Assembly: GCF_042660085.1 (NCBI RefSeq)
Contig: NZ_JBHSTI010000008.1
Location: 1,929,876 to 1,961,875, forward strand
From: Longivirga aurantiaca
GTDB taxonomy: Bacteria > Actinomycetota > Actinomycetes > S36-B12 > CAIYMF01
Direction: 5' to 3'
DNA: 32,000 bases
Below the pieces are notes generated by a model. The model was not told the origin of the DNA. It did not search any database and saw only the letters and a program-made list of their open reading frames with translations. The translations under genes were made by a program, and so were the position numbers. This document shows positions 3,299 through 18,579 of the stretch, piece after piece. Within the stretch, counting starts at the first letter, position 1, and every line of letters begins with the position of its first letter.

Positions 3299-3327
3299 GC
3301 GCGACGTACATCGAACTCACGGCCGGA

Positions 3328-4384: not shown

Positions 4385-4433
4385 CGTGGGCGTCCCTTCC
4401 TCGAAACGACGACGTACGCGTCCTGCCGGTGGC

Positions 4434-4459
4434 GACGTGCGACGCCCCGGGGGGTTCCC
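4434..4459 (-). promoter_or_regulatory. candidate ECF (SigE-type) promoter upstream of pspA: GGGAAC-N16-CGTC on the minus strand
   Basis: The minus strand reads GGGAAC (4459->4454), 16 nt, then CGTC (4437->4434), roughly 45-50 nt upstream of the pspA ATG. The -10 element is CGTC rather than the consensus CGTT. Confidence 0.3.
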
Positions 4460-4638
4460 AACCTATCGGCCCGTGCGCGGCCTGTCCCCCGGTCGCGCCC
4501 CGGGCGCCCGCCCGGATGCGCTGAGTAGCGGCCCGGGGGATCTGAGTAGTCGCTACCCATCCCCCGGGGCGCCGATCTCCCGAGACTCGTCCACGAGCGG
4601 CCCCACCGGGGGCCACGCCAGGACCAAGGAGAACCCCG

Positions 4639-5475
4639 ATGACCAGCACCCTGCGCCGCGTGAGCGCCGCCCTGGTGACCAGCGCCGCCCTCGTGGCGGG
4701 CACCCTCGGCCTCGCCGCCCCCGCCGAGGCCGCCAGCCTCTGCGCCACCGACTGCATCTCGTACGCGCCGGTCTCGGCCGACACCAGGACCGTCCGGGCC
4801 AGCGTCGTCACCACCGGCTACGTGAACGTGACCGCCGAGGTGTGGGCGGCGGACAAGTCGGCCCGCGTCTCGTACATGGTCGACGGCCAGACCGAGACCT
4901 GGACGAGCTCCTGGACCTTCACCAGCACGGGCGGCCTGAAGCAGAACACGACCTACGCCGTGAAGCTCGTCGCCAAGGACATGCTCGGCAAGACCTGGAC
5001 CGAGTGGCGCTCGGTGCGCGTCAAGCAGCGCACCGCCACCTGGCACATCACGAAGATCAACCTCGCCGACGACAGCGACTACGCCGGGGCGGGCGAGTTC
5101 AAGGCCGGCTGGAAGGCAGGCACGACGGTCAAGTCGCCGCTCTGGAGCGGCTGGCAGTCCAAGTCCTCGGGCGGCTCCTGGACGCTCTCGTCCAGCAACG
5201 CGGCAGCCACGATCGTGCGCGTCGGCGAGACCTCGAGCCCGAAGGTCTTCCTCGAGCTCCTCGACGACGACACCGACATCGGCGACTTCGGCTGCGGCAC
5301 CGGCTTCGCGCCGAGCTGGGACTGGGGCACGAACAGCTGCGCCGACTGGGCCACCGCCGGGGCCTACGTGAACCTCCCCGAGACCTCCGCGACCACGAGC
5401 TTCACCCTGTACGTCGCCAAGACGGCGCCGGTGAAGTTCACCGTCCAGGGGTACGTCGTCACCACGGTGTCCTGA
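4639..5475 (+). CDS. secreted protein of unknown function (Sec signal peptide, four Cys, beta-rich)
   Basis: Listed ORF 4639..5475 with a strong RBS (AAGGAG, 7 nt upstream). Signal peptide is MTSTLRRVSAALVTSAALVAGTLGLAAPAEA/AS. G/C3 bias is high. I recognise no family. Confidence 0.8.
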   Translation: MTSTLRRVSAALVTSAALVAGTLGLAAPAEAASLCATDCISYAPVSADTRTVRASVVTTGYVNVTAEVWAADKSARVSYMVDGQTETWTSSWTFTSTGGLKQNTTYAVKLVAKDMLGKTWTEWRSVRVKQRTATWHITKINLADDSDYAGAGEFKAGWKAGTTVKSPLWSGWQSKSSGGSWTLSSSNAAATIVRVGETSSPKVFLELLDDDTDIGDFGCGTGFAPSWDWGTNSCADWATAGAYVNLPETSATTSFTLYVAKTAPVKFTVQGYVVTTVS

Positions 5476-5489
5476 CGCCCGCGCACCCC

Positions 5490-5523
5490 GGCAGGCCCTC
5501 GCTCCCCGGAGCGGGGGCCTGCC
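5490..5523 (+). terminator. hairpin terminator after the secreted-protein gene
   Basis: ggcaggccctcgctcc cc ggagcgggggcctgcc forms about 15 bp including one G-U pair, 15 nt after the stop codon. It is followed by cgTTcgT. Confidence 0.5.
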
Positions 5524-5550
5524 CGTTCGTGCCGCCCGGGGCGGGCCGCT

Positions 5551-5556
5551 TAGAGT
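5551..5556 (+). promoter_or_regulatory. candidate -10 hexamer TAGAGT placed for a leaderless transcript starting at GTG 5563
   Basis: It matches TANNNT and lies 6 nt upstream of the start codon, with no Shine-Dalgarno sequence. Confidence 0.45.
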
Positions 5557-5562
5557 GACCGC

Positions 5563-6171
5563 GTGTTCCGCCGCAAGAGCTCCGACACCGAGGTGCCGGC
5601 GCCCGCCTCCGAGACCTCGTCCGCCGCCCAGGGCAAGGGCGCGCCCACGCCTACCCGCAAGGAGGCCGAGGCCGCCCGCAAGGCGCGGCTCAACGGCACC
5701 ACGGGCAACGCCAAGGCCGACAAGAAGGCGGCCCGCGAGGCCGACCGTCAGGCCCGCTACGAGGCCCGCCTGGCCCTGCAGGCCGGCGACGAGCGCAGGC
5801 TCCCCGCCCGCGACGCCGGACCGGTGAAGTCCTATGTCCGCGACTTCGTCGACGGCCGCATCAGCGCCGGCGAGCTCTTCATCCCGGTGGCCCTCGTGGT
5901 CCTGGTGGCCGGCTTCATCCGCATCCAATGGGTGCAGGTCGTGCTGCTGTGGGCGTGGTCGGCGATGCTCCTCGGCGTCATCCTCGACTCGTTCTACCTC
6001 TGGTTCCGCCTGCGCAAGAACCTCCCGGAGCGCTTCCCCGACGAGTCGCGCCGCGGCGCACTGTCGTACGGCATCCTGCGCAGCCTGCAGATCCGCAAGC
6101 TCCGCCTGCCCCCGCCCAAGGTGCGCTACAACGGCCAGCCCGTGGTGCCCAAGGTCAAGAAGCAGAAGTAG
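5563..6171 (+). CDS. DUF3043-domain membrane protein
   Basis: Listed ORF 5563..6171. It has a Lys/Arg/Ala-rich N-terminus (GKGAPTPTRKEAEAARKARL) followed by two TM helices, the architecture typical of actinobacterial DUF3043. Confidence 0.8.
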   Translation: MFRRKSSDTEVPAPASETSSAAQGKGAPTPTRKEAEAARKARLNGTTGNAKADKKAAREADRQARYEARLALQAGDERRLPARDAGPVKSYVRDFVDGRISAGELFIPVALVVLVAGFIRIQWVQVVLLWAWSAMLLGVILDSFYLWFRLRKNLPERFPDESRRGALSYGILRSLQIRKLRLPPPKVRYNGQPVVPKVKKQK

Positions 6172-6200
6172 GCGAGATCGCGGCGGTCCGCTGCCGCGCA

Positions 6201-6206
6201 TAGGGT
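6201..6206 (+). promoter_or_regulatory. candidate -10 hexamer TAGGGT placed for a leaderless transcript starting at ATG 6213
   Basis: It matches TANNNT and lies 6 nt upstream of the ATG. Confidence 0.4.
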
Positions 6207-6212
6207 CGGGGG

Positions 6213-7211
6213 ATGCAGCACCGACGTCTTGGCCGCAGCGGCCTCAAGGTCAGCGAGATCTCCTACGGCAACTGGATCACCCACGGGTCCCAGGTCGAGG
6301 AGGACGCCGCCCTCGCCTGCGTGAACGCCGCGCTCGAGGTCGGCATCACCACCTTCGACACCGCCGACGTGTACGCCGGCACCAAGGCCGAGTCGGTGCT
6401 CGGCAAGGCCCTGGCCGGCCAGCGCCGCGAGGGCCTCGAGATCTTCACGAAGGTCTACTGGCCGACCGGCCCCGGCGTGAACGACCGCGGGCTGTCGCGC
6501 AAGCACATCCTCGAGAGCATCAACGGCTCGCTGCGCCGCCTCGGCACCGACTACGTCGACCTCTACCAGGCGCACAGGTACGACCACGAGACGCCGCTCG
6601 AGGAGACCATGCGCGCGTTCGAGGACGTCGTCCGGTCCGGCAAGGCGCTGTACGTCGGCGTCTCGGAGTGGGACGCCGAGCAGATCCGTCGCGCGGTCGA
6701 GATCGCCGACCAGATGGGCTTCGACAGGCTCGTGTCGAACCAGCCGCAGTACTCCATGCTGTGGCGCGTCATCGAGGCCGAGGTCGTGCCGACGAGCCAG
6801 GAGCTCGGGCTCGGGCAGGTCGTCTGGAGCCCCATCGCGCAGGGCGTGCTCACGGGCAAGTACCTCCCCGGTCAGCCCGCCCCCGAGGGCTCGCGCGCCA
6901 CCGACCCGACGAGCGGACACTTCACCGAGCGCCTGCGCACCGACGAGATCCTCACCCGGGTGCAGAAGCTGAAGCCGCTCGCCGAGCAGGCCGGCCTGTC
7001 GATGGCCCAGCTCGCGGTCGCGTGGGTCCTGCAGAACGACAACGTGTCCTCGGCCATCATCGGCGCGAGCCGCCCCGAGCAGGTCGTCGAGAACGTCAGG
7101 GCCGCGGGCGTCGTGCTCGAGCCCGAGCTGCTCGACGCGATCGACATCGTGCTCGGCGACGTCGTCCAGACCGACCCGCGCCTCACCGTCTCCCCCAACC
7201 CCCGGGCGTGA
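6213..7211 (+). CDS. aldo/keto reductase (Kv-beta-like subfamily)
   Basis: Listed ORF 6213..7211. Motifs: RRLGRSGLKVSEISYGNW, TFDTADVYAGTKAESVLG, LYQAHRYD, SNQPQYSML. Confidence 0.9.
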   Translation: MQHRRLGRSGLKVSEISYGNWITHGSQVEEDAALACVNAALEVGITTFDTADVYAGTKAESVLGKALAGQRREGLEIFTKVYWPTGPGVNDRGLSRKHILESINGSLRRLGTDYVDLYQAHRYDHETPLEETMRAFEDVVRSGKALYVGVSEWDAEQIRRAVEIADQMGFDRLVSNQPQYSMLWRVIEAEVVPTSQELGLGQVVWSPIAQGVLTGKYLPGQPAPEGSRATDPTSGHFTERLRTDEILTRVQKLKPLAEQAGLSMAQLAVAWVLQNDNVSSAIIGASRPEQVVENVRAAGVVLEPELLDAIDIVLGDVVQTDPRLTVSPNPRA

Positions 7212-7486: not shown

Positions 7487-8872
7487 TCAGGCTGCGGCGG
7501 CGACCAGGGTGCCGCTGTACATGCCCATGACGCAGGCGAAGTCGTAGCGCTCGCCCGCCGCGAGCGGCGGCAGCGTCACGACGTTCGGCCCCGTCCTCAG
7601 GTTCGTCCGCCACTCCCAGCTCACACCGCGCATGTACGCCGCGCAGCTGAGGTCGGACACCGAGGTGATCTCCCACCGGATCGGCACGCCCGGCGCGACG
7701 ACCGTGGTCGCCGGGACGTAGCCGCGCGTGGTCTGCTCCATCGTCACGGTCTGCGTGCCGGCCCCGACGACGACGTTCGGGGTGATCGCCGTCGGCACGT
7801 CCGACCGACCCTGGGTCCAGCCGAGCAGGCCCGCGGCCCCCTGGGCGTTGACCAGCGCGAAGGCGACGAGGAGCGCCCCCGTGATCGCGAGGACCTGCTG
7901 ACGGACCTTCGCCGAGCCGAGGCGCGGGAGCCCGGCGACGGCGAGGAGCCCCGGTGCGGTGCCGATCGCGAACACCGCCATCGTCACGCCCGCGGTGAGC
8001 GCGGATCCCGTGGTCATCGCGTAGAGCTGGATGGCCTGGGTGAAGCCGCACGGGAGGAAGAACGTGAGGGCCCCGAGCACCGCGGTGCGCGTGTCGGAGT
8101 AGGGCAGACCCGACCGCTCCTCGATGCCCAGCCGACGGCCGAGGGACGGCGGAAGCGACGGCGACCAGGCGGCGAGCCGCGGCGAGATCCGCAGCAGCCG
8201 GAGCCCGAGCACGGCCATCACGAGCGCCACCGCGAGGGTGAGCACCGCCTGCGCCTTCTCGGGCAGGCCGAGCTGCGCGCCGATCGCGCCGAGGGCGGCG
8301 CCGAGCACCGCGAAGCCGACGATCCGGCCGCCCTGGAAGACCAGGTGCGGGCGGAGGCTGCCGCGCGTCGGCCGGCCGTCCTCGTAGGTGACCGACGCCG
8401 CGTGCGACGCCGACACCGCGAGCACGAGGCCCCCGACGAGCGCCATGCAGGTCGAGACGCCGGCGGCGAGGCCCACCAGCAGCACGACCAGGAGGCTCCC
8501 GGACGACGTGGACGTGGACTCCGCCACGAGGTCGGGCACGCCGAAGAAGGCCAGGAGGACCGCCCCGACGGCGACGAGGGCGACGGCGACGACCGCCTCG
8601 CGCCAGACGGTGACGTCGTCGCTGATCCACGGCTCGCGGCCGACGCGGTAGCCGGCCTTCTCCACCGCGGCCGACACGCGCGCATCGAGGTCCGGCGCTG
8701 CGGCGCCGTCCGCCACGGTCAGCACGGCGGTCCCGCGACGCACCGACACCTCGGCGTCCAGCACCCCCGGGACGCGGCGCAGGGCCTTGGTCACCCGGGT
8801 CTCGCAGGCGCGGCAGGTCATGCCGGCGACCGGCACGCGCACCTCGTGCGCGCTCGTCGTCGAGCCGGCCAT
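7487..8872 (-). CDS. fusion membrane protein: N-terminal HMA metal-binding domain, DsbD_2 (TauE/SafE-like) transmembrane domain, C-terminal cupredoxin-like domain
   Basis: Listed ORF 7487..8872 with RBS AGGAGG upstream. It carries the HMA motif GMTCRACETRV, the membrane-core motifs GVSTCMALVGG and FFLPCGFTQAIQLY, and a C-terminal beta domain ending YDFACVMGMYSGTLV. Confidence 0.85.
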   Translation of the reverse strand: MAGSTTSAHEVRVPVAGMTCRACETRVTKALRRVPGVLDAEVSVRRGTAVLTVADGAAAPDLDARVSAAVEKAGYRVGREPWISDDVTVWREAVVAVALVAVGAVLLAFFGVPDLVAESTSTSSGSLLVVLLVGLAAGVSTCMALVGGLVLAVSASHAASVTYEDGRPTRGSLRPHLVFQGGRIVGFAVLGAALGAIGAQLGLPEKAQAVLTLAVALVMAVLGLRLLRISPRLAAWSPSLPPSLGRRLGIEERSGLPYSDTRTAVLGALTFFLPCGFTQAIQLYAMTTGSALTAGVTMAVFAIGTAPGLLAVAGLPRLGSAKVRQQVLAITGALLVAFALVNAQGAAGLLGWTQGRSDVPTAITPNVVVGAGTQTVTMEQTTRGYVPATTVVAPGVPIRWEITSVSDLSCAAYMRGVSWEWRTNLRTGPNVVTLPPLAAGERYDFACVMGMYSGTLVAAAA

Positions 8873-8996: not shown

Positions 8997-9140
8997 CCCC
9001 CTACGGTGGGGGTCACAACTGAACACCCGCGCCTGACGTCCAGGGGAAGCCGGTCCGAATCCGGCGCTGAACCCGCAACCGTAGGTGGTCGACCCGTTGA
9101 GGACGGGAGCGGCCGCGAGCCGGAGCACCTGGCGGGCGCG
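8997..9140 (+). promoter_or_regulatory. cobalamin (B12) riboswitch aptamer
   Basis: The conserved core GGGGAAGCCGGTCCGAATCCGGCGCTGAACCCGCAACCGTAGG lies at 9043-9085 and a B12-box-like GAGCCGGAGCACCTGGC at 9117-9133. CTACGGT (9001-9007) pairs with ACCGTAG (9079-9085). It sits upstream of corrinoid transport and nucleotide-loop genes. Confidence 0.85.
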
Positions 9141-9206
9141 AGATCGGCTCACATCCGTCGAGGTCTACGGAACGAGCCCGGACCGTCCCCCTGGTCCGAC
9201 CTCTCG

Positions 9207-9250
9207 CCCCTCGCGCCCGGTCCTCACGGACCACGGCTCGAGGGGTTTTT
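9207..9250 (+). terminator. riboswitch expression platform: intrinsic terminator (cccctcg ... cgagggg + TTTTT)
   Basis: The outer stem pairs 9207-9213 with 9239-9245 and encloses an inner ggtcc/ggacc stem. A T5 run, rare in this sequence, follows at 9246-9250. It lies between the aptamer and the first start codon at 9311. Confidence 0.6.
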
Positions 9251-9310
9251 CGTCGTACGGGGAGCAGTCCGGACCACTTGGTTCGTGCCCGCTCCACCGA
9301 AAGGACCCCC

Positions 9311-10696
9311 GTGGTCACGCTCTCCCCCGGACGCGCTCCGGCCGTACGTCGCTCGCTCGCCGGCCTGCTGGCCGCCGCCACGGTCATCGCCTCCGCCGCG
9401 CTCGGCGCCGCGCCGGCCTCGGCCGCCGAACCGGTCCAGGTGGGGCTGTTCGGCACGCAGGACCCGACCTACGACGGCGTCTTCCGCCAGTCGCTCTCGC
9501 TGCTCGCCTTCGTGTCAGCAGGCGAGGAGCCCCCGGCCGAGGCGGTCGCCTGGCTGCTCGACCAGCAGTGCGCCGACGGCGGCTTCCAGGCCTACCGCTC
9601 GGACACCTCGGCGCCGTGCACCGAGTCCGACCCGGTGAACTACGTCGGCGAGGACTCCAACTCCACCGCGCTGGCCTCGGCAGCGCTCACCGTGCTCGGT
9701 GAGCTCGACGCGGCGGACGCGGCCCTCGGCTGGCTCGAGTCCGCCCAGAACGCCGACGGCGGCTTCCCTTACTTCCTCGGCGGCACCTCCGACGTGAACT
9801 CCACCGCGATCGCGCTGCTCGCGACCAACGCCGTCGGCCTGTCGCCCAGCCAGGTCACCAACGGCTCGGCGTCGGCCGCCGACTACCTCACCTCCCTGCA
9901 GGTCGGCTGCCCCGGCGCGGCCACCGACGAGGACGGCGGGTTCGCGTACGCCGACTTCTCGGCCGGCACCGCGAACGACTCCGCCACTGTGCAGGCGGCG
10001 CTCGCGATCACGGGCGCTGCGCTGCCGTTCGTGGCCGACCCGCCGTCGCTCGACATCCCGCGCGCCGACTGCCCGGCACCCGCCGCGGCCCCGGCCGCCA
10101 CCACCGAGGCACCGGCCGCTGCGGCCGCTGCGGTCGACCTGACGCCGGCCGAGCTCGCGGGCGGCTACATCGCGCGCACGCTCACGGCGTACGACAACGC
10201 GATCCCCGAGCTCGACTTCGGCACCGGCCTGCGCAAGCCCGGCACGGTGTCGGCCGGGGACACGGCCTGGGCCGTGCTCGCGCTCTCGGCCATCGGCGTC
10301 GGCGGCGACCAGCGCGACGCCGCCCTCGACGTGCTGCTCGGCCAGGTCGGCGGCGGGTCCGCCCGCAAGGCCGCGGCCGCCTCGGTCTCGGACGAGGCAC
10401 CGGGCCTGCTCGCCCTCGCGGCGCTGGCCGTGGTGTCCGCCGACGGCAGCCAGGCCACCGTCGAGGGCCTGGTGGCCCGGGTCGGCGCGACGATGCGCAC
10501 CGCACCGGCGTCGTCCAGCCCGACGCCGTCGCCGACCGGCAGCACCGAGCCGACCCCGTCACCCACCGACGCCGGTGGCCTCGCCCCCTCGGGTGCCTCG
10601 CCGCTCACGCCGGGCCTCGCCGGGTCGGGTGCTCTGCTGGTCCTGCTCGGTGCCGCAGCGCTGCTGGTGTCACGCCGCCAGGGGTCGCACGCATGA
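9311..10696 (+). CDS. secreted prenyltransferase/squalene-oxidase-repeat (alpha/alpha-toroid) protein with a C-terminal membrane or cell-wall anchor
   Basis: Listed ORF 9278..10696, trimmed to GTG 9311 (RBS GAAAGGA 7 nt upstream). Signal peptide ends ...ASAALGAAPASA/AE. Repeated QxxDGGF-type motifs are present (QQCADGGFQ, AQNADGGFPYF, TDEDGGFAY). The C-terminus reads LAPSG, then a hydrophobic stretch, then SRRQ. Confidence 0.85.
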   Translation: MVTLSPGRAPAVRRSLAGLLAAATVIASAALGAAPASAAEPVQVGLFGTQDPTYDGVFRQSLSLLAFVSAGEEPPAEAVAWLLDQQCADGGFQAYRSDTSAPCTESDPVNYVGEDSNSTALASAALTVLGELDAADAALGWLESAQNADGGFPYFLGGTSDVNSTAIALLATNAVGLSPSQVTNGSASAADYLTSLQVGCPGAATDEDGGFAYADFSAGTANDSATVQAALAITGAALPFVADPPSLDIPRADCPAPAAAPAATTEAPAAAAAAVDLTPAELAGGYIARTLTAYDNAIPELDFGTGLRKPGTVSAGDTAWAVLALSAIGVGGDQRDAALDVLLGQVGGGSARKAAAASVSDEAPGLLALAALAVVSADGSQATVEGLVARVGATMRTAPASSSPTPSPTGSTEPTPSPTDAGGLAPSGASPLTPGLAGSGALLVLLGAAALLVSRRQGSHA

Positions 10697-11643
10697 CCGC
10701 CGCACGCCGGGGCACGGCGACCGCCCGCGCGGTCGCCGTCCTCGGCGTGCTCGGATCCACCCTGCTCGCCCTGCTCGTGGCCGCTGCCGTGACGGCACCG
10801 GCCGCCGAGGCGGCGTCGTACCGGTACTGGACCTACTGGTGGGGCCAGCCCGGAGCGACGTCGTGGACCTTCGCCCAGCTCGGTCCGGCCAGCGACCGGC
10901 CGAAGGACGGCGCCGTGATCGGGTGGCGCTTCGCCGTCACCACCGAGAGCGGCGGCAAGAAGTCGCCCCGCGCCGCGCTGCCGTTCGCATCGCTGTGCCC
11001 GCAGCTCACCTCGGCGCCCGACGGCCAGAAGCGCGTGGCGGTGGTGGTCGACTACGGCTCGACGTCGGACGCGCCCCCCGGCGAGCAACCGCCCGGCGGA
11101 GGAACCGTGCGCGTCGAGTGCGTGACCGCGGCGTCGAACGCCAACGCGGTCACCGTGCTGACGACGGCCGGGGTGTCGCTGCGCGTCGGCGGCAACGGGC
11201 TGGTCTGCGGCATCGACGGCTACCCGCGCACCGAGTGCGCGGCGGTCGTCGCCGACCCGACGCCGACCCCCACGCGCACGAGCGCCAAGCCCACGCCGAA
11301 GCCGACCACCGCGCGTCCGACGAGCTCGTCTGCCGAGCCGGCGACCACGGCCGAGGTGCCGGCGGCTCCTGCAGGTGGCACCCCGACCACGCCCGCGGGC
11401 GAGACGACGACCCCGGGCGCGTCGGCGTCGAGCGCTTCGGCGTCGAGCACGAGCGCCGCCCCCACCGCGCAGGAGACGGCCGACGGATCGGAGGCACCGC
11501 TGCCGGCGAGCTCCGGTGCTCCGGTGGCGTCCGGCACCGAGGCCCCCGCGGGCGGCAGCCCGCTCGGACCGATCGCGGGTGCAGCCCTGGTCGCGGTCGT
11601 CGGCGCCGGCGCCTGGTGGACCGCGCGCGGGAGGCGGTCGTGA
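10693..11643 (+). CDS. secreted SCO2322-like protein with a DUF4430-like N-terminal domain, Pro/Thr/Ala-rich linker and C-terminal TM anchor
   Basis: Listed ORF 10693..11643, with an ATGA overlap on the upstream stop. Signal peptide ends ...VTAPAAEA/AS. The motif YRYWTYWWGQPGATSWTFAQLGPASDRPKDGAVIGWRF resembles the DUF4430 (transcobalamin beta-domain-like) signature. The tail is IAGAALVAVVGAGAWWTARGRRS. Confidence 0.8.
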   Translation: MTAARRGTATARAVAVLGVLGSTLLALLVAAAVTAPAAEAASYRYWTYWWGQPGATSWTFAQLGPASDRPKDGAVIGWRFAVTTESGGKKSPRAALPFASLCPQLTSAPDGQKRVAVVVDYGSTSDAPPGEQPPGGGTVRVECVTAASNANAVTVLTTAGVSLRVGGNGLVCGIDGYPRTECAAVVADPTPTPTRTSAKPTPKPTTARPTSSSAEPATTAEVPAAPAGGTPTTPAGETTTPGASASSASASSTSAAPTAQETADGSEAPLPASSGAPVASGTEAPAGGSPLGPIAGAALVAVVGAGAWWTARGRRS

Positions 11644-12797
11644 CGCGTCCCGCCCACCGCCTCGGCGGCAGCGCCCTGCCGCGCTGGACCCATCCGGTCG
11701 CCTGGTGGGTCTGGGCGCTCGGCCTCGCGACCGCCGTCAGCCGCACGACCAACCCGCTCCTGCTCGCGCTCGTCGTCGCCGTCGCCGGCTGGGTGGTGGC
11801 GCGGCGGCGTCCGGACGCTCCCTGGGCACGGTCGTACGCCGTGTTCCTGCGCCTCGGCCTGCTCGTGATCGCGATCCGCGTCGCGTTCACCGTGGTGCTC
11901 GGCTCGGGCTCCGGCACCACGGTGCTGGTGACGCTGCCCGAGATCCCGCTGCCCGACTGGTTCGCCGGCGTCAGCCTCGGCGGCCCCGTCACCCTCGAGG
12001 AGCTGCTGGCCGCCGTGTACCAGGGGATGGTGCTGGCCGCGCTGCTCGCGTGCGTCGGGGCGGCGAACTCGCTCGCCTCTCCCGCGCGCCTGCTCGCCTC
12101 GGTGCCGGCCGCGCTCTACGAGGTGGGCGTCGCCGTCGTCGTCGCGATGACGTTCGCACCGCAGCTCGTGCAGGACGTCGGCCGCGTCCGCACGGCGCGC
12201 CGGCTGCGCGGCCGACCCGACCGAGGTGTGCGTGCGCTCGCCGGCTCGGTGATGCCGGTGCTCGAGGGCGCGCTCGAGCGCGCGGTCGACCTGGCCGCAG
12301 CCATGGACTCGCGCGGCTACGGCCGCACCGGGACGCAGTCGCCGGCGCTGCGCCGCACGTCGGGCGCGCTGCTGCTCCTCGGCCTGGTCGGCATGTGCCT
12401 CGGCGTCTACGCGCTGCTCGACACGGGCGCAGCCGGCACCCTCGGCCTTCCGCTGCTGGTGCTCGGCGTCGCGGCGGGGACGGTCGGCGTGCTGCTCGCC
12501 GGACGCCGCAGCATCCGCACCCGCTACCGGCCCGACCCGTGGGCGCTGCCCGAGTGGATCGTGGCCGCCACCGGCGTGATCGTCGCTGCCGTCCTCGTCG
12601 CCGTCTCGATCACCGACCCGATGGTGCTCGTCGGGCCGGTCTCGCCGCCCGCGTGGCCCGCCCTCCCCCTCGTGCCGGTCGCCGCGATCCTCCTGGCCGC
12701 GCTCCCGGGCCTCGTCACACCGCCGCCGCCCGGCATGATGGCGATCGCGTCGTTGCCGGTCCGCACGGACCGCCAGGCGGAGGGGGTGGCCGCGTGA
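11640..12797 (+). CDS. ecfT: ECF transporter transmembrane (T) component, CbiQ/EcfT family
   Basis: In-frame GTG at 11640 (GTGA overlap) within listed ORF 10575..12797. It is a polytopic membrane protein with the coupling-helix motifs TARRLRGR and AMDSRGYG. Confidence 0.9.
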   Translation: MTRPAHRLGGSALPRWTHPVAWWVWALGLATAVSRTTNPLLLALVVAVAGWVVARRRPDAPWARSYAVFLRLGLLVIAIRVAFTVVLGSGSGTTVLVTLPEIPLPDWFAGVSLGGPVTLEELLAAVYQGMVLAALLACVGAANSLASPARLLASVPAALYEVGVAVVVAMTFAPQLVQDVGRVRTARRLRGRPDRGVRALAGSVMPVLEGALERAVDLAAAMDSRGYGRTGTQSPALRRTSGALLLLGLVGMCLGVYALLDTGAAGTLGLPLLVLGVAAGTVGVLLAGRRSIRTRYRPDPWALPEWIVAATGVIVAAVLVAVSITDPMVLVGPVSPPAWPALPLVPVAAILLAALPGLVTPPPPGMMAIASLPVRTDRQAEGVAA

Positions 12798-14425
12798 TCC
12801 GCTTCGAGGACGTCACCGTCACCTACGACGGCGCCTCCGCTCCGGTGCTGAGCAACGTCGACCTGCACATCCCCGAGGGGGAGCTGGTCCTGGTCGTCGG
12901 CCGCACCGGCACCGGGAAGTCGACGCTGCTGCGCTGCGTCAACGGGCTCGTGCCGCACTTCACCGGCGGCACCCTGCGCGGACGCGTCACCGTCGCCGGA
13001 CGCGACACGCGCACCCACCCGCCTCGGGAGCTCGCCGACGTCGTCGGCGTCGTACCGCAGGACCCGCTCTCGGGGTTCGTCACGGACATCGTCGAGGACG
13101 AGCTCGCCTACGGCATGGAGTCGATCGGCCTCGCACCCGACGTCATGCGCCGTCGCGTCGAGGAGACCCTCGACCTGCTGGGCCTCAACGACCTGCGCAA
13201 CCGGGCGCTGCGCTCGCTGTCCGGCGGCCAGCGCCAGCGCGTGGCCATCGGCGCGGTGCTCACCATGCACCCGCGCGTGCTGGTGCTCGACGAGCCGACG
13301 TCCGCGCTCGATCCCGGTGCGGCCGAAGAGGTGCTGGCTGCGCTGCAGCGGCTCGTGCACGACCTCGGCGTCACCGTGCTGCTGGCCGAGCACCGGCTCG
13401 AGCGCGTGGTGCAGTACGCCGACCGCGTCGTCGTCGTGCCCGGCGCGGGCGAGCCGCTCGTGGTCGGGACGCCGGCCGAGGTCATGGCGACCGCACCCGT
13501 GGCACCGCCGGTGGTCGAGCTCGGCCGCCTCGCGGGCTGGTCTCCGCTGCCGCTCTCGGTGCGCGACGCCCGCCGCGCCGCCGGACCGCTCCGCGAGCGC
13601 CTCGAGCCGCTCGTCGCCGAGGCGGCCCTGCGCTCGCGGCAGTCGCTGCACGTCGTGTCCGGCGACCCGGCGGTGTCGGCTCGCGACGTCGTCGTACGCC
13701 ACGGTGCGATCGCCGCGCTGCGCGGCGTCACCGTCGCCGCCGACCGTGGCGAGATCGTGGCGGTGATGGGGCGCAACGGCGCGGGCAAGTCGACGCTGCT
13801 CTCGACGTTCGTCGGCCTGCACACCCCCACCAGCGGCAGCGCGACCGTCGGCGGATCGGTCGCCTCCACGCTGCGCGGGCGCGACCTCGTGAGCCGCGTC
13901 GGGCTCGTGCCGCAGGAGCCCACCGACGTGCTGGTCGCCGACCGTGTGGCCGACGAGTGCACGTCGGCCGACCGCGACGCCGGTGCGGCGCCCGGGACCG
14001 CGCGCGCCCTGCTCGACCGGCTCGCGCCCGGCGTGCACGACGACACGCACCCCCGCGACCTGAGCGAGGGCCAGCGCCTCGCGCTGGCGCTCGCGGTCGT
14101 GCTCGCGGCGCAGCCCCCGGTGCTGCTGCTCGACGAGCCCACCCGCGGCCTCGACTACCCGGCCAAGCAGAGGCTCGTCGCCACGCTGCGCGAGCTCGCC
14201 GCGGCCGGGCACTGCGTGATCCTCGCGACGCACGACGTCGAGCTCGCCGCCGAGGTGGCCACGCGCGTCGTCGTCCTCGCCGAGGGCGAGGTGGTCGCAG
14301 ACGGCCCCGCCACCGAGGTCGTGGTCGGGTCGCCCATGTTCGCGCCGCAGGTGAGCAAGGTGCTGTCGCCGCAGCCGTGGCTCACCGTCGCCGAGGTCGC
14401 AGCCGCCCTCGTGGTGGCGTCGTGA
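12794..14425 (+). CDS. ECF transporter ATPase, fused tandem A/A' ABC domains
   Basis: In-frame GTG at 12794 (GTGA overlap) within listed ORF 11375..14425. It has two full ABC sets: GRTGTGKST / LSGGQRQR / LVLDEPTS and GRNGAGKST / LSEGQRLA / LLLDEPTR. Confidence 0.9.
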   Translation: MIRFEDVTVTYDGASAPVLSNVDLHIPEGELVLVVGRTGTGKSTLLRCVNGLVPHFTGGTLRGRVTVAGRDTRTHPPRELADVVGVVPQDPLSGFVTDIVEDELAYGMESIGLAPDVMRRRVEETLDLLGLNDLRNRALRSLSGGQRQRVAIGAVLTMHPRVLVLDEPTSALDPGAAEEVLAALQRLVHDLGVTVLLAEHRLERVVQYADRVVVVPGAGEPLVVGTPAEVMATAPVAPPVVELGRLAGWSPLPLSVRDARRAAGPLRERLEPLVAEAALRSRQSLHVVSGDPAVSARDVVVRHGAIAALRGVTVAADRGEIVAVMGRNGAGKSTLLSTFVGLHTPTSGSATVGGSVASTLRGRDLVSRVGLVPQEPTDVLVADRVADECTSADRDAGAAPGTARALLDRLAPGVHDDTHPRDLSEGQRLALALAVVLAAQPPVLLLDEPTRGLDYPAKQRLVATLRELAAAGHCVILATHDVELAAEVATRVVVLAEGEVVADGPATEVVVGSPMFAPQVSKVLSPQPWLTVAEVAAALVVAS

Positions 14426-15282
14426 CGGCCACCGCGCTCCCGCCCCGCGACGACGTCCGCGTGGTCCATGTCGGCAGACCGGCTGCCGTCCGCATCGGCC
14501 GCCGCTCGCTCGCCGCGATGGTCCTGGCCAGCGCGGTCGGCATCGTCGCCTTCGCCTGGCCGCTGATGGCACCCGCCGGCTCGTCGATCGTGGCGCATGC
14601 CGCCGACGCCCCCTGGCTCTTCGCCGCGATGCTTCCGCTCGTGCTCGCGGTCGTCCTCGCCGAGGTCGCCGACGGCGGCCTGGACGCCAAGGGCATCGCG
14701 CTGCTCGGGGTGCTGTCGGCCGCCGCTGCCGCGCTCCGGCCGTTCGGCAGCGGGCACGCCGGCTTCGAGCCGATGTGGATCGTGCTGGTGCTCGGCGGCC
14801 GCGCGCTCGGCCCCGGCTTCGGCTTCTGCCTCGGCGCCGTGGGGATGTTCGCCTCCGCGATGGTGACGGGCGGCGTCGGGCCATGGCTGCCGTTCCAGAT
14901 GGTCGGCGCGGCCTGGGTGGGACTCGGCGCGGGCCTGCTGCCGCGGGCCGGCGGACGGCGCGAGCTCGGGCTGCTCGCGGCGTACGCCTTCGTCGCCGCG
15001 ATCGCCTACGGCTTCCTGCTCAACCTGTGGTTCTGGCCGTTCATCACCGCCGACCAGGGGTTCCCGGCCGGGCTGTCGTACGTGCCGGGCGGCACGTTCA
15101 CCGAGAACCTGCAGCACTGGATGCTGTTCAACCTCACCACGTCGCTCGGCTTCGACATCCCGCGCGCGGTGCTGACCGTGGTGCTCGTGCTGGTGGCCGG
15201 TCGGCCGGTGCTGACCGCCCTGCGGCGGGCGTCGAGGCGCGCGGCGTTCGAGGTGCCGGTGCGGTTCGAGGACGTGCGCTGA
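14422..15282 (+). CDS. ECF transporter substrate-specific (S) component, predicted corrinoid-specific
   Basis: In-frame GTG at 14422 (GTGA overlap) within listed ORF 13957..15282. It is a small Gly/Ala-rich integral membrane protein with about six TM helices. Its position after the T and A components, under a B12 riboswitch, supports the call. Confidence 0.75.
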
Positions 15283-16691
15283 TGCGGGCGCTGGTCCTCG
15301 GCACCGGATCGGCGGACGGCTGGCCGAACCCGTTCTGCGAGTGCGCCTCCTGCACCTGGGCGCGCACGAGCGGATCGGTGCGCACGACCACCTCGGTGCT
15401 CGTCGACGACGTGCTCCTGCTCGACTTCGGCCCGGACACCCCTCGCCAGGCCTCGCGCGCCGGACGCAGCCTCGCCGGCCTCGCCGCCGTCCTCGTGACC
15501 CACGCGCACCACGACCACCTCGACCCGGCCGCACTGCTCGCCCGGTCGTGGGCGGGGCCTGCGTCGTCGCTCCGCGTGGTGGGCCCGCCGTCGGTCGTCG
15601 ACGCGTGCGAGCACTGGATCGGCCCGCACGACACCGTGGCGCTCACCGCCGTCGCGCCGGGCGACGTCCTCGACCTCGACGGCTACGCGGTCCGCGTGCT
15701 CGCTGCGGCGCACGACGTCGGCGCCGACGCCCTCACCCGCGACGCCGTCCTCTACGACGTGACCGCGCCCGACGGGTCGCGGCTGCTCTACGCGACCGAC
15801 ACCGGGCCCCTGCCCGACGCGACCGTCGCGGCGCTGGCCGGCTCGGCGCTCGACCTGCTGCTGGTCGAGCAGACCTTCGGCACCTACCTCGACCACGGCA
15901 CCGGCCACCTCGACCTCGCGACGCTTCCCGGCGAGCTGCGCCGGCTGCGCGAGGTGGGCGCCCTCACCGACGCGACCGACGTCGTGGCCGTGCACCTCAG
16001 CCACCACAACCCGCCGGGGCCCGAGCTCGCGCGGGTGCTCGCGCCGTGGGGCGTGCGGACCGTCGACGACCTGACCGAGATCGAGGTGGGTGCGGTGCCG
16101 GACGCAGCGACGGCGATGCTCCCGCGGCGCACCCTGCTGCTCGGGGGTGCCCGCTCGGGCAAGTCGCACGAGGCCGAGCGGATGTTCGCCGCGACGGCCG
16201 ACGTCGAGTACGTCGCCACCGGCGGATCGCGCGACGGCGACGACGAGTGGGCCGCGCGCGTGGCGCTGCACCGGGAGCGCCGCCCGGCGTCGTGGACGAC
16301 CACGGAGACGCTCGACGTCGCGAAGCTCCTGCTCTCCCCGGGCCCGCCCGTGCTGCTGGACTGCCTCTCGCTCTGGCTCGCGGGCGTCCTCGACGCCTCG
16401 GGCGTCTGGGCGTCCGAGCCGGGCACGGCCGGGCGCGCGGCCGCGCTGGCCGAGGTGGAGCGCGAGGTCGCGGCGCTGGTCGACGCGGTCCGACGTACGA
16501 CGCGCACGCTCGTGCTCGTGTCGAACGAGGTCGGCAGCGGCGTCGTGCCCGAGCACGAGTCGGGCCGCCTCTACCGCGACGCGCTCGGACGCCTCAACGC
16601 CCGCGTCGCCTCGGAGTGCGACGCTGTGTCCCTCGTCGTCGCAGGGACCGTCCTGCCCCTCAAGCCCGGAAGCAGCGCAGCAGCACCGTGA
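15282..16691 (+). CDS. cobU: fusion protein: N-terminal PhnP/PqqB-like MBL-fold hydrolase and C-terminal adenosylcobinamide kinase/adenosylcobinamide-phosphate guanylyltransferase (CobU/CobP)
   Basis: ATG at 15282 overlaps the upstream TGA (TGATG), inside listed ORF 14775..16691. The N-terminal half has [23 protein letters not shown] and THAHHDHLD. The C-terminal half has the P-loop [15 protein letters not shown] and CobU-like [11 protein letters not shown] and [12 protein letters not shown]. Confidence 0.85.
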
Positions 16692-17770
16692 CCGTCGACC
16701 TCGACGCCCTCGTCGCACGCATCGACCTGCCCGACGACGACGCACGCGCCGCCGCGGCCGAGCGGCAGTCGCGGCTGACCAAGCCGACGGGCGCGCTCGG
16801 GCGGCTCGAGGAGCTCTCGCTCTGGCTCTGCGCGGCGCAGGGCGTGTGCCCGCCTCGACCGCTCGAGCGCGTGCGCGTCATCGTGCTCGCGGGCGACCAC
16901 GGGATCGCGCGCACCGCGGGCACCAGCGCCTACCCGCCCGAGGTCACCGCCCAGATGGTGCTCAACTTCCTCGCCGGCGGCGCGGCCGTGAACGTGCTCG
17001 CGCGGCAGAACGGCGCCACCGTCCGAGTCGTCGACGTCGCGGTCGACGTCGACTGGACCGAGCTCGGCGCATCGGTGCCGGACGACGTCGTGCGCGACAA
17101 GGTGCGCAGGGGCAGCGGCTCGATCGACCGCGAGGACGCGATGACGCGCGAGGAGGCCGAGGCGGCCTTCGCGCTCGGCGTGCGCATCGCCGACGACGAG
17201 GTCGATGCGGGCGCGGATCTCCTCATCCCCGGCGACATGGGCATCGGCAACACCACTCCGGCGGCGGTGATCACCGGGCTCTACACGAACCAGGACGCGG
17301 CGTCGGTCGTCGGTCGCGGCACCGGCATCGACGACGCGACGTGGATGCGCAAGACCGCGGCGGTGCGCGACGCCATGCGCCGCGGGCGGGCGGTGAAGGG
17401 CGACCCGATGGCGCTGCTGACCACCGTCGGGGGCGCCGACATCGCAGCCATGACGGGGCTGCTGCTGGGCGCGGCGGCACGGCGTACGCCGGTGCTGCTC
17501 GACGGCGTGGTGTCGTGCGCGGCGGCCCTCGTGGCGCAGCGGGTCTCGTTCCGCGCGCGCGAGTGGTGGCTCGCCGGGCACCGGTCGACCGAGCCGTCGG
17601 CGGCCGCGGCGCTCGACCGGCTGCGGCTCGAGCCGATCGTCGACTACGGCCTGCGCCTCGGCGAGGGAACCGGCGCGTTGGTGGCGCTGCCCGTCCTCGT
17701 CGCGGCGGGCGCGACCCTGCGCGAGATGGCGACCTTCGACGAGGCCGGCGTCTCGGACCGGGAGGCCTGA
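16688..17770 (+). CDS. cobT: nicotinate-nucleotide--dimethylbenzimidazole phosphoribosyltransferase
   Basis: In-frame GTG at 16688 (GTGA overlap) within listed ORF 15341..17770. Motifs: [50 protein letters not shown]. Confidence 0.92.
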
Positions 17771-18579
17771 TGCCCGACTCCGTGCGCCTCGCCCTCGGCA
17801 CCTTCACGATCCTGCGCGTCCCGCCGCCGCGGGTGGTCGACCGGCGCACCGCCCGCGACGCGATGCTGCTCGCACCGCTCGTCGGCGCGCTGCTGGCGCT
17901 GGTCGGCGCGGTGGTGATCCTCGCCGTACGGCTCTCGCCGCTCGGCCACCGCACGCACATCGTGGTCACGCTGGTCGCGGCGACGCTGGCGATCATCACG
18001 CTCGCGGTCCTCACCCGCGGCCTGCACCTCGACGGTCTCGCCGACACCGCCGACGGCCTGGGGGTGAAGGGCGACGACGACGGCGCCCGCGAGCGGCGAC
18101 TCGCCGTGATGCGCCAGCCCGACATCGGGGCGTTCGGCGCGATCACCCTGGTGCTGGTGCTCGTCGTGCAGATCCTGGCGCTCACCGCGTGCGACCTCGC
18201 GGGCCGCGGGACCGTGAGCCTCGTGCTCGCTTGCGTGGTCGCCCGGCTCGCGATCGTGTGGGCGTGCACGCCGCTCGCCCGCTCGGCCCGGCCCGACGGG
18301 CTCGGCGCGGCGGTGGCGGGCTCCGTGCCGTACGCCGCCGCGGCGCTGCTCACGGCCGCCGTCCTGGCCGTCGCCGTCCTGCTCGGCCTCGGCGACGACG
18401 ACGGCGGTCGCCGGCTCGCCGCCGCCCTCGTGATCGGCACTGCGGTCGGCCTGCTCGCCGGCTACCTCGTCGTCCGCCGGGCCCAGGCCCGCTTCGGCGG
18501 CATCACCGGCGACGTCCTCGGCGCCACCGCCGAGCTCACCTTCACCGCCGTGCTCCTCTCGCTCGCCCTCCTCCCCTGA
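17770..18579 (+). CDS. cobS: adenosylcobinamide-GDP ribazoletransferase (cobalamin synthase)
   Basis: ATG at 17770 overlaps the cobT TGA, inside listed ORF 16090..18579. It is a polytopic membrane protein with the LHLDGLADTADGL motif and GGITGDVLGA near the C-terminus. Confidence 0.9.
   Translation: MPDSVRLALGTFTILRVPPPRVVDRRTARDAMLLAPLVGALLALVGAVVILAVRLSPLGHRTHIVVTLVAATLAIITLAVLTRGLHLDGLADTADGLGVKGDDDGARERRLAVMRQPDIGAFGAITLVLVLVVQILALTACDLAGRGTVSLVLACVVARLAIVWACTPLARSARPDGLGAAVAGSVPYAAAALLTAAVLAVAVLLGLGDDDGGRRLAAALVIGTAVGLLAGYLVVRRAQARFGGITGDVLGATAELTFTAVLLSLALLP

Follow-up and report, generated by a model that had tools for sequence, protein, structure and literature searches.

Two secreted proteins of Longivirga aurantiaca as probable accessory components of a riboswitch-controlled, ECF-type corrinoid importer

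The window analyzed here (a stretch of 32,000 nucleotides from Longivirga aurantiaca) contains a cobalamin riboswitch followed by an operon of eight translationally coupled genes, encoding a toroid protein, an SCO2322-family protein, EcfT, EcfAA', an ECF S component, a metallo-beta-lactamase-fold (MBL)–CobU fusion, CobT, and CobS. Open reading frames were confirmed at 9311-10696 (gene 1) and 10693-11643 (gene 2), and these are the first two genes after the riboswitch at 9017-9150, as the original prediction had placed them. Gene 1 opens with a GTG start codon with AAAGGA just 5' of it, the ATG start of gene 2 overlaps the gene-1 stop codon as ATGA, and gene 2 is joined to the EcfT gene by a GTGA start/stop overlap. 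The features of the locus are the following.

9017..9150, + strand: cobalamin riboswitch aptamer RF00174 (31.0 bits, E = 5.8e-6, full model spanned)
9207..9250, + strand: GC-rich hairpin followed by UUUUU, a probable terminator of the riboswitch expression platform (RNA fold of 9130-9320, z = -3.4)
9311..10696, + strand: gene 1, predicted secreted alpha/alpha-toroid protein (RefSeq name 'prenyltransferase/squalene oxidase repeat-containing protein')
9311..9427, + strand: signal peptide of gene 1, read directly from the sequence (…AAPASA, followed by AEP)
9428..10042, + strand: toroid N-segment with DPTYDGVFRQS, QQCADGGF, and AQNADGGF (conserved columns of alignment A2)
10043..10138, + strand: Pro/Ala-rich variable linker within the toroid (model without secondary structure at residues 195-239)
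10139..10495, + strand: toroid C-segment, which is N-terminal in 'type B' relatives (BLASTP against P0209, HMM segment order)
10580..10693, + strand: probable sortase-type sorting signal of gene 1, consisting of LAPSG, a hydrophobic stretch, and RRQGSHA (NCBIfam strep_LAETG)
10693..11643, + strand: gene 2, SCO2322-family protein (NCBIfam NF040672, Pfam PF28005; 150.1 bits, cut-off 85)
10816..11262, + strand: SCO2322 globular domain (AF2 model, pLDDT 90.9) with four conserved Cys
11263..11568, + strand: Pro/Thr/Ala/Ser-rich tether of ~100 residues (direct sequence reading)
11569..11640, + strand: C-terminal transmembrane helix and basic tail of gene 2, without a sortase motif (homologue comparison)
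11640..12797, + strand: ECF T component, CbiQ family (Pfam CbiQ, 32.5 bits)
12794..14425, + strand: fused ECF ATPases A-A' (two ABC_tran domains, E = 2.3e-54)
14422..15282, + strand: ECF S component (Pfam ECF_trnsprt, 38.5 bits, cut-off 30.7)
15282..16691, + strand: metallo-beta-lactamase-fold and CobU fusion (CobU E = 3.8e-49; Lactamase_B_2 E = 6.5e-16)
16688..17770, + strand: CobT (DBI_PRT, E = 6.3e-129)
17770..18579, + strand: CobS (E = 3.1e-43)

The riboswitch was missed by a default scan because its score lies 0.5 bit under the Rfam gathering score of 31.5 bits for RF00174. Homologous elements pass this gathering score in six of nine related loci (32.4-36.7 bits) and their aligned core is conserved; a custom model made from such related-locus elements (R1) gives the window element 114.6 bits. 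Run over related loci, R1 places the element ahead of the operon in 69 of 80 loci from genomes and 42 of 47 from metagenomes. If loci with too little upstream sequence are set aside, the counts become 65 of 68 (genomes) and 42 of 42 (metagenomes), all five metagenome misses being truncated upstream. The hairpin at 9207..9250 received no call in a consensus terminator scan. Further downstream, the CbiQ match, the two ABC_tran domains, and the ECF_trnsprt match lie in successive genes that overlap, which identifies the transporter as a dedicated (group I) ECF transporter, the S component of which has no detectable similarity to CbrT or any solved S component in sequence searches.

Gene 1 is a clear homologue of the NCBIfam equivalog SCO2321_fam (NF053823), with which it shares the conserved pairing with SCO2322; its score (196.8 bits, E = 5.4e-58) is below the cut-off of 300 and does not qualify it as the equivalog itself. 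The repeated QxxDGGF motifs of alpha/alpha-toroid type that had first drawn attention to it are indeed there, two of them being exact (QCADGGF at residue 86 and QNADGGF at residue 146). Pfam matches lie just above the cut-offs (SQHop_cyclase_C 28.2 vs 26.1, Prenyltrans 27.1 vs 26.5), and a PDB profile search matched squalene-hopene cyclase (E = 1.6e-21). The AF2 model (pLDDT 94.4) yielded Foldseek matches at probability 1.0 to drimenyl-diphosphate synthase, squalene-hopene cyclase, prenyltransferase beta subunits, and the complement TED domain. Model confidence dips in the internal linker (10-residue block means of 75-86 at residues 211-240), which is far longer in the homologue P0105; the N-segment before it served as the torN HMM. 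Judged by sequence and model, we are confident that gene 1 encodes an alpha/alpha toroid of the prenyltransferase/terpene-cyclase type, and a non-catalytic one.

That this toroid is an active extracytoplasmic terpenoid cyclase or prenyltransferase modifying an envelope lipid is barely credible, despite the profile and Foldseek matches to squalene-hopene cyclase and drimenyl-diphosphate synthase. The D.DD pattern of the class II terpene cyclase motif (DxDD) was sought across the whole protein and is absent, the Pfam scores barely reach their thresholds and cover repeat motifs only, and the protein would be sortase-anchored outside the membrane, far from isoprenoid diphosphate substrates, in a context that is strictly B12 riboswitch and ECF. 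The doubt already voiced about an enzymatic prenyltransferase role was well placed. Relatedness of the toroid to transcobalamin did not emerge either: transcobalamin is not among the 50 best Foldseek matches, an hhalign alignment to 90 mammalian transcobalamins is not significant (P = 0.14), and Cobalamin_bind (PF01122), considered as a possible family, is not among the Pfam matches.

Gene 2 belongs to the SCO2322 family (NF040672, E = 5.2e-44 over residues 38-186), and PF28005 is annotated on all 89 of its homologues. Like gene 1, it has an N-terminal signal peptide (by sequence reading), which agrees with the predicted extracytoplasmic location of both proteins. Their anchors differ. A hydrophobic C-terminal anchor had been proposed for each, and this holds for gene 2, whereas gene 1 instead carries a probable sortase-type sorting signal. 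The latter scores 29.6 against strep_LAETG (cut-off 30), LAPSG having Ser in place of Thr, and 72 of 83 toroid homologues have an L[PA]xTG-like motif at this position, compared with an LxxTG-like motif in only 2 of 88 homologues of gene 2; no sortase gene lies within the window. Conserved cysteines in both proteins suggest disulfides. The SCO2322 domain displays many invariant aromatic and charged surface-type residues, and neither sequence nor Foldseek searches found significant similarity to any known ligand-binding domain. At E <= 0.001, Foldseek found nothing in the PDB for the model of this domain.

The original prediction had also noted a resemblance to DUF4430, regarded as the bacterial counterpart of transcobalamin-beta, in the motif YRYWTYWWG…KDGAVIGWRF of gene 2. 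This motif-level impression found no backing in Pfam. The DUF4430 model (PF14478, gathering score 23.8 bits) does not match native gene 2 even at E <= 10, nor the 89 native homologues among the 25 of 33 families listed, nor SCO2322 consensus sequences in native or permuted order, nor 33 natural type B domains, nor type C domains. One of 42 artificially permuted SCO2322 sequences matches it (E = 0.046), and human transcobalamin-beta, as a positive control, does so at 29 bits (E = 1.4e-6); gene 2 was consequently rejected as a DUF4430 member. By structure, too, the SCO2322 domain lacks a significant counterpart in the PDB: 3u7z, a crystal structure of DUF4430, appears only at E = 8 (rmsd 2.9 A, 68 columns, 22% identity), being the only Foldseek match with more than 30 aligned columns and an rmsd below 8 A. 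Mammalian transcobalamin itself has no significant sequence match to either protein of the pair and no Foldseek match, for the toroid among the 50 best. What is left is a marginal likeness of SCO2322 to transcobalamin-beta, which in sequence alignments and model appears after circular permutation only. The order of secondary-structure elements in the model then fits, and hhalign gives a colinear alignment over 81-82 columns that was equalled by 4/100 and 1/100 column shuffles (z about 2.3-3.2 against column shuffles).

Such permutation is not just a device of ours, as the SCO2322 domain occurs naturally in two circularly permuted forms. In the 'type B' form, strands and helix follow the order of transcobalamin-beta/DUF4430; the hairpin YRYWTYWWG…DGAVIGWRF of the window protein corresponds to the last two strands of type B, and its remainder to b1-b2-alpha-b3-b4. 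An artificially permuted SCO2322 profile aligns with the natural type B protein of locus L085 at E = 1.2e-19 over 102 colinear columns (hhalign), and alignments A5 and A6 support the correspondence. The toroid is permuted as well. Residues 281-415 of the window toroid match residues 46-171 of homologue P0209 by BLASTP, and residues 19-254 match 128-374. Both proteins are permuted in exactly the same loci (70 vs 22 loci, no mixed cases). The two permuted forms of SCO2322 and the matching permutation of the toroid are new here. As the joint permutation splits only two clades, it may represent one coincidence of events on one branch. The paired permutations also provide two natural topologies per protein, which are useful for structure determination and for testing mutual contact.

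The operon occurs across Actinobacteria. The SCO2322 family reaches at least 473 GTDB species and forms 2272 clusters at 50% identity (E <= 0.001). The order riboswitch, (toroid), SCO2322, T, AA', S is kept in 60 of the 62 genome loci whose downstream sequence is long enough, and CobU/CobT/CobS follow directly in most non-Streptomycetaceae loci. There are exceptions: the pair has no ECF module beside it in L033 and L087, and SCO2322 is found on its own in L066 and L074. No natural fusion of toroid and SCO2322 was found, the candidates P0170 and P0371 being frameshift artefacts. At least 24 loci have no toroid gene; there, the riboswitch directly precedes the SCO2322 gene and the ECF module is kept. 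The pair is not equally frequent outside B12 contexts, its link to the riboswitch and a dedicated ECF transporter extending across hundreds of species, and since this link is so tight, co-occurrence leaves the proposed B12 role of the pair unrefuted. An experimentally assigned function for the gene pair is not on record, as had been supposed. For B12-auxotrophic acI actinobacteria, a riboswitch-preceded ECF module has been proposed as the B12 importer (PMC5301498).

We propose, with a probability of roughly 0.6, that both gene products act outside the cytoplasm as accessory components of a dedicated corrinoid importer of the ECF type, under a cobalamin riboswitch acting as an off-switch, the surface pair most likely being helpers that catch B12-like molecules outside the cell. 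Low B12 would permit transcription of the entire operon. The toroid protein would be exported and fixed to the cell wall by sortase, and the SCO2322 protein would be exported and stay tethered to the membrane via its long flexible linker and single C-terminal helix. Neither would be enzymatic. Instead, they may bind cobalamin or incomplete corrinoids (e.g., cobinamide) extracellularly and hand them to the S component, with uptake powered by EcfT and EcfAA'. In this organism, CobU, CobT, and CobS from the same transcript would then add the lower ligand. SCO2322 would be the constant partner of the transporter, with the toroid as an outer receptor that is optional; in loci with both, the two may jointly clamp the ligand in the manner of transcobalamin. 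The analysis shows the operon structure, its regulation, the localization signals, the folds, the absence of catalytic motifs, and the co-occurrence, from which ligand binding, hand-off, and any complex of the two proteins are inferred. Of the split transcobalamin-like pair as originally conceived, the extracytoplasmic location, the toroid, and the connection with B12 and the ECF transporter stand, the DUF4430 match falls away, and an obligatory clamp is unlikely.

The strict form of that idea, in which toroid and SCO2322 make up an obligatory heterodimeric clamp (in essence, transcobalamin in two chains), is doubtful, even if several observations speak for it: a toroid is combined with a small beta-rich domain, both proteins were permuted together in the same lineages without any mixed combination, the alignment to transcobalamin-beta is colinear (but weak), and the L. 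sakei model discussed below offers a precedent. The loci lacking a toroid gene retain riboswitch, SCO2322, and ECF module and so mark the toroid as dispensable, making an obligatory two-halves clamp unlikely. Moreover, the predicted anchors are in different layers (wall for the toroid, membrane for SCO2322), neither protein belongs to DUF4430 or Cobalamin_bind, and the co-permutation may be the single coincidence mentioned above. The same toroid-free loci, which include streamlined low-GC lineages, agree with a view of SCO2322 as an integral auxiliary ECF subunit (as CbiN is for CbiM) rather than a ligand-capture protein, its transmembrane helix docking on S or T, its ectodomain gating or stabilizing S, and the toroid being an unrelated or loosely coupled wall protein. 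SCO2322 is indeed the invariant partner, its gene always lying directly 5' of the T gene with translational coupling between the two, it is anchored in the membrane and not in the wall, and it lacks significant similarity to known ligand-binding domains. We nonetheless consider this unlikely: a flexible tether of ~100 residues is better suited to a domain that reaches out or shuttles than to a fixed subunit, and the invariant aromatic and charged surface-type residues, the weak resemblance to transcobalamin-beta, and the co-occurrence with a toroid, as in transcobalamin-like systems, also speak against it.

It is more improbable still that the transporter imports cobalt, another metal, or a tetrapyrrole such as heme, with the surface proteins serving that substrate. 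B12 riboswitches control cobalt transporters too, the T component matches a 'CbiQ cobalt transport' family, and heme import was reported for the comparable system of L. sakei (bioRxiv 10.1101/864751). However, the S component is of the PF12822 type and not CbiM, the operon runs on into the cobinamide-salvage genes CobU/CobT/CobS, and B12-controlled cobalt import would be purposeless in acI lineages that lack B12 biosynthesis. Heme, for its part, would leave the cobalamin riboswitch in about 100 loci unexplained.

The idea that an ECF transporter is accompanied by a split, transcobalamin-like protein pair is not unprecedented, as it was already proposed for Lactobacillus (Latilactobacillus) sakei. 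There, Lsa1836-1840 comprise a transcobalamin-alpha-like and a transcobalamin-beta-like protein beside ECF S/AA'/T; the two were modelled as a heterodimer (Verplaetse et al., bioRxiv 10.1101/864751), and this accessory heterodimer was proposed to hand a tetrapyrrole, claimed to be heme, to the S component (bioRxiv 10.1101/864751). Matched by gene composition, five parts are shared, namely S, fused AA', T, and two secreted proteins including a prenyltransferase-like toroid. The gene order is reversed relative to the operon here, and the cobalamin riboswitch and CobU/CobT/CobS point to corrinoids instead of heme. The beta protein of the Lsa1839/Lsa1840 type is transcobalamin-beta-like by HHpred (E = 1e-24), whereas SCO2322 has no DUF4430 match and is circularly permuted. 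Anchoring of the kind predicted here, by a sortase signal and a tethered transmembrane helix, is not described for L. sakei. A plasmid collection searched for the L. sakei system gave no match. Bacterial surface proteins in which a transcobalamin-like SLBB beta-grasp is fused to an alpha/alpha toroid were also predicted to be cooperative B12 binders (Burroughs et al. 2007, PMC1796856). These, too, are secreted or Gram-positive-anchored and combine a toroid with a small domain, but they occur mainly in low-GC Gram-positives and belong to a detectable transcobalamin C-terminal clade, whereas the proteins here are actinobacterial, encoded by separate genes, and not detectable as that clade. Mammalian transcobalamin, intrinsic factor, and haptocorrin share the alpha/alpha toroid and small beta-rich domain, and the hairpin RPKDGAVIGWRF resembles the mammalian transcobalamin-type RPKDGETIELRL; they are single chains, however, whereas here there are two genes, on which the Cobalamin_bind and DUF4430 HMMs are silent.

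Other comparisons are functional. ECF-CbrT of Lactobacillus delbrueckii is an ECF-type ABC importer of cobalamin and cobinamide that uses a shared ECF module without known extracytoplasmic accessory proteins, whereas the operon here encodes a dedicated module with a surface pair and a dissimilar S component. In the B12-binding surface lipoproteins BtuG/BtuH of Bacteroides and the sortase-anchored heme relay Isd of Firmicutes, exposed binders collect a scarce tetrapyrrole for a membrane transporter, much as proposed here, and in Isd, as predicted for the pair here, one component is wall-anchored and one membrane-proximal; their folds are unrelated, however, and their transporters are TonB-dependent or type II ABC. 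CbiN of the CbiMNQO cobalt ECF transporters has two transmembrane helices, a short loop, and a metal ion as substrate. Like SCO2322, it is a small additional protein anchored in the membrane; its gene lies between the S-type and T genes, and the transporter needs it for function, but it has no large ectodomain.

Read jointly, and tentatively, SCO2321/SCO2322 could represent the first case of an ECF transporter with extracytoplasmic substrate capture: a two-chain, circularly permuted transcobalamin relative whose wall toroid and membrane-tethered beta domain would pass corrinoids along across the actinobacterial envelope, whose joint permutation would stem from a shared interface or a fused ancestor, and which might be the main B12/cobinamide route of Streptomyces and acI freshwater actinobacteria. 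ECF transporters are textbook importers that work without extracytoplasmic binding proteins. SCO2322 accompanies a B12-regulated ECF module nearly without exception, in a range that extends from Streptomyces to the B12-auxotrophic bacteria that are most abundant in fresh water. Should it bind corrinoids, this would show how high-GC Gram-positives gather B12 across a thick wall, open a way to study corrinoid cross-feeding in soils and lakes, and possibly reveal a bacterial relative of transcobalamin with its halves encoded as separate genes.

The pair formed by the toroid protein and the SCO2322-family protein heads a corrinoid uptake-plus-salvage operon. The best protein matches of the window come from the actinobacterium Longivirga aurantiaca, at 100% identity. 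As the original prediction had described, the two genes come first after a riboswitch, which lies at 9017-9150 (+) and matches the Rfam cobalamin model over its full length (31.0 bits, E = 5.8e-6). With a score 0.5 bit short of gathering, it escaped the default scan. The RNA fold (z = -3.4) places a strong GC-rich hairpin at about 9207-9250, between aptamer and start codon, with UUUUU behind it. This looks like the riboswitch terminator; it is visible in the fold only, and searching the leader for consensus terminators and promoters gave no match. Downstream of the riboswitch follow eight genes on the plus strand, with successive overlaps of ATGA, GTGA or TGATG.

Genes of the riboswitch-preceded operon (window positions)
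9311-10696, +, toroid protein
10693-11643, +, SCO2322-family protein
11640-12797, +, CbiQ-type ECF T component
12794-14425, +, fused double ABC ATPase
14422-15282, +, ECF S component
15282-16691, +, fusion of a metallo-beta-lactamase-fold domain and CobU
16688-17770, +, CobT
17770-18579, +, CobS

Compared with solved structures, the S component has no similarity to CbrT. In the fusion protein the metallo-beta-lactamase-fold domain is N-terminal, and this arrangement is kept in many related operons, including that of the distantly related locus L085.

Several flanking genes are kept as well. The upstream region (995-7211), with PspA/PspAB, a peptidase M48, DUF3043 and an aldo/keto reductase, and the downstream region (19111-21866), with GcvT and a leucyl aminopeptidase, are both found around the operon in distant relatives (L082, L085, L086 and L088), which points to vertical inheritance of the operon. 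The upstream region also holds a 278-aa ORF (4639-5475, +) that has no match in Pfam and whose GC3 of 0.99 is strongly of the coding type. At 7487-8872 (-), a divergent gene, also near the pair in locus L087, encodes a membrane protein combining HMA, DsbD_2 (CcdA-like) and cupredoxin-like parts; it may be relevant to disulfides of Cys-rich exported proteins or may be mere synteny.

Relatives are widespread, with a pattern scan finding them in at least 473 GTDB species and an exhaustive HMM search returning 2272 clusters at 50% identity (E <= 0.001), 975 of which reach E <= 1e-10. Among 80 genome loci, the T, AA' and S genes lie downstream of SCO2322 in 60 of the 62 with enough downstream sequence, and 65 of the 68 with enough upstream sequence have a riboswitch; Rfam places it above gathering in 6/9 loci. 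The metagenome loci behave likewise (42/47), all five misses having incomplete upstream sequence, and CobU/CobT/CobS or CobT follow in most loci outside the Streptomycetaceae. These co-occurrence counts answer the question of whether the pair is equally frequent outside B12 contexts: it is not. Exceptions are two loci with riboswitch, toroid and SCO2322 genes and no adjacent ECF module (L033, L087), and two with a lone SCO2322 gene and no riboswitch (L066, Streptomyces coryli; L074, Streptomyces boninensis). In the latter two, no riboswitch, toroid or ECF genes occur within 8 kb of the gene at about position 8000, and these genes may be paralogues with another role. The toroid gene is absent from at least 24 loci having at least 1.8 kb of upstream sequence, many of them from low-GC freshwater lineages; in all toroid-less loci scanned except the two orphans, SCO2322 follows the riboswitch at a distance of about 200 nt. 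The transporter's constant companion is the SCO2322 protein, and the toroid is optional.

The toroid protein has a Sec signal peptide and contains the QxxDGGF motif twice in exact form, and its predicted alpha/alpha-toroid type is borne out by several approaches. It narrowly clears the Pfam thresholds for SQHop_cyclase_C and Prenyltrans, and a PDB profile search with 111 homologues finds squalene-hopene cyclase (E = 1.6e-21). Its AlphaFold model (pLDDT 94.4, pTM 0.92) is matched by Foldseek, at probability 1.0, to drimenyl-diphosphate synthase, squalene-hopene cyclase, prenyltransferase beta subunits and complement TED domains. A variable Pro/Ala linker splits the toroid into a large N-segment and a smaller C-segment that closes the ring. 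Against the NCBIfam "SCO2321 family membrane protein" model the protein scores 196.8 bits, under the equivalog cut-off of 300. It ends in LAPSG, a hydrophobic stretch and a basic tail, scoring 29.6 with the LAETG sortase-signal model (cut-off 30), and an L[PA]xTG-like motif is found at the C-terminus of 72 of 83 homologues.

The second protein belongs to the SCO2322 family (NCBIfam SCO2322_fam, 150 bits with a cut-off of 85), and Pfam assigns its homologues to PF28005 "SCO2322". Its parts, in N- to C-terminal order, are a signal peptide, a domain of about 150 residues, a Pro/Thr/Ala tether of about 100 residues, one helix and a basic tail. A sortase motif is lacking here and occurs in 2 of 88 homologues. 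Hydrophobic C-terminal anchors had been predicted for both proteins: the second indeed has one, whereas the first appears to bear a sortase-type signal and not a plain anchor. The domain contains many invariant aromatic residues and four conserved cysteines, of which two never vary and the other two occur in at least 90% of sequences; its confident structure model (pLDDT 90.9) has the order hairpin, strand, strand, helix, strand, strand.

The proposed resemblance of this domain to DUF4430 fails at the level of HMMs. The Pfam model was run on the native sequence, 89 homologues, 42 artificially permuted sequences, 8 consensus constructs, and 33 type B and 6 type C domains (natural variants described below). 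It does not match the native sequence at any threshold, nor the consensus constructs or the type B and type C domains, and the matches listed include none for the 89 homologues; one of the 42 permutants is hit (E = 0.046). As a positive control, human transcobalamin-beta matches at 29 bits. PDB profile searches with native, permuted and natural type B alignments likewise gave no match to transcobalamin or to the DUF4430 crystal structure 3u7z, and on sequence grounds the native domain matches no solved structure. Matches to PsaF were rejected as spurious, resting on a short SGLLCxxDGxP motif; the type B profile weakly matches the N-terminal domain of this photosystem I protein via SGLLCGADGLPH (best E = 0.007), which we take as chance. 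Foldseek found no significant PDB match for the domain model. The model superposes on 3u7z over 68 columns (2.9 A, 22% identity), but at E = 8; among the matches listed 3u7z alone aligns closely, nearly all others exceeding 8 A (8hgi_D, 30 columns at 7.1 A, is the exception).

The order of secondary structure in the model suggests a circularly permuted domain, with an N-terminal hairpin (YRYWTYWWG…DGAVIGWRF) equivalent to the final two strands of transcobalamin-beta (EFWQLL…DGETIELRL). A natural counterpart exists. The distant toroid homologue P0209 leads to locus L085, where an uncalled ORF between the toroid and CbiQ genes has exactly the permuted order and aligns colinearly with a profile built from the artificially permuted family sequences (102 columns, 38% identity, E = 1.2e-19). 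The source annotation misses this gene and calls a 136-aa opposite-strand ORF instead. The toroid of L085 is permuted too, residues 281-415 of the window's toroid matching P0209 46-171 and 19-254 matching 128-374. A metagenome scan yielded about 45 such type B domains as well as a third subgroup of greater divergence, type C, which hhalign aligns to type B at E = 1e-11.

Loci with variant beta domains
L085:4932-7285 and L090-L126, type B, counterpart of window 9311-11643
L145:1374-3549, also L134, L136, L138, L146, L152 and L153, type C

Type C domains have the pattern RAVVIVDTGSG…RYWAYFR…DGDVEGWRFGTG, and the toroid encoded ahead of them is more canonically prenyltransferase-like and carries an LANTG signal. 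In L145 and L152, the two type C loci scanned, a riboswitch precedes the toroid and a T-component gene is found upstream in the opposite orientation.

Across all loci fetched, the SCO2322-order domain goes with an N-then-C toroid in 70 (type A), a C-then-N toroid accompanies the type B domain in 22, and there are no mixed combinations. Because the pattern may reflect two clades only, this joint permutation counts as a single correlated event and not as 92 separate ones. Two apparent toroid-SCO2322 fusions, P0170 (664 aa) and P0371 (730 aa), were rejected as frameshift artefacts because their middle is an Arg-rich out-of-frame translation and the second protein's own signal peptide is retained; they are unfit as Rosetta-stone evidence.

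With the merged superfamily, hhalign gives a colinear alignment to mammalian transcobalamin-beta over 81-82 columns (residues 17-98 of 101; second strand to last). The score of 15.4-17.4, compared with 10.5 ± 2.1 for column-shuffled controls, was reached by 4/100 and 1/100 shuffles, so that the profile-profile likeness is marginal. The transcobalamin sequence was checked against PDB entry 5no0; the homologue search returned mammalian TCN2 only (at least 70% identity), making this DUF4430-type profile shallow. Toroid and transcobalamin compared by hhalign gave P = 0.14, and a tblastn search of plasmids with the toroid, aimed at a Firmicute locus that combines toroid and DUF4430, found no match.

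The best-supported reading is that the pair is the corrinoid-capture apparatus of a dedicated ECF importer. Its regulation, localisation signals, folds and co-occurrence are documented here; binding, hand-off and any heterodimer are inferred. A strict two-halves clamp is weakened because toroid-less loci exist and the two proteins are anchored differently. The main rival gives the SCO2322 protein a CbiN-like structural role, a reading that its constant place beside the transporter would suit. Cobalt as substrate, which a CbiQ-type T component would fit, is unlikely for a module whose S component is of the PF12822 type, not CbiM, and whose operon runs on into CobU/CobT/CobS genes. Heme, also unlikely since it would leave the cobalamin riboswitch of about 100 loci unexplained, is the substrate claimed for the closest published system, the Lactobacillus sakei lsa1836-1840 operon (bioRxiv 10.1101/864751). 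An enzymatic toroid would suit its structural neighbours among cyclases and prenyltransferases; the DxDD motif is absent, and we share the earlier judgement that this role is unlikely. As a capture apparatus, the putatively sortase-anchored toroid would be located in the wall and the tethered SCO2322 domain at the membrane; together they would supply the S component with cobalamin or cobinamide, and incomplete corrinoids would be finished by CobU/CobT/CobS.

Literature on SCO2321/SCO2322 yielded nothing that addresses function, in line with the prediction that the pair lacks an experimentally assigned one. Related systems have been proposed: in L. sakei, HHpred assigned two secreted proteins to the transcobalamin beta and alpha domains, a heterodimer model was made of them, and delivery to an ECF S component was proposed (bioRxiv 10.1101/864751). 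Burroughs et al. 2007 described bacterial surface proteins with a transcobalamin-like beta-grasp and an alpha/alpha toroid as predicted B12 binders (PMC1796856), and Kang et al. regarded riboswitch-preceded ECF modules as likely B12 importers of acI actinobacteria, leaving the extra genes unmentioned (PMC5301498). Owing to these precedents, the SCO2321/SCO2322 pair is a widespread, divergent new version of an already proposed kind of system. Newly observed here are that both partners occur in circularly permuted forms and that the toroid is dispensable.
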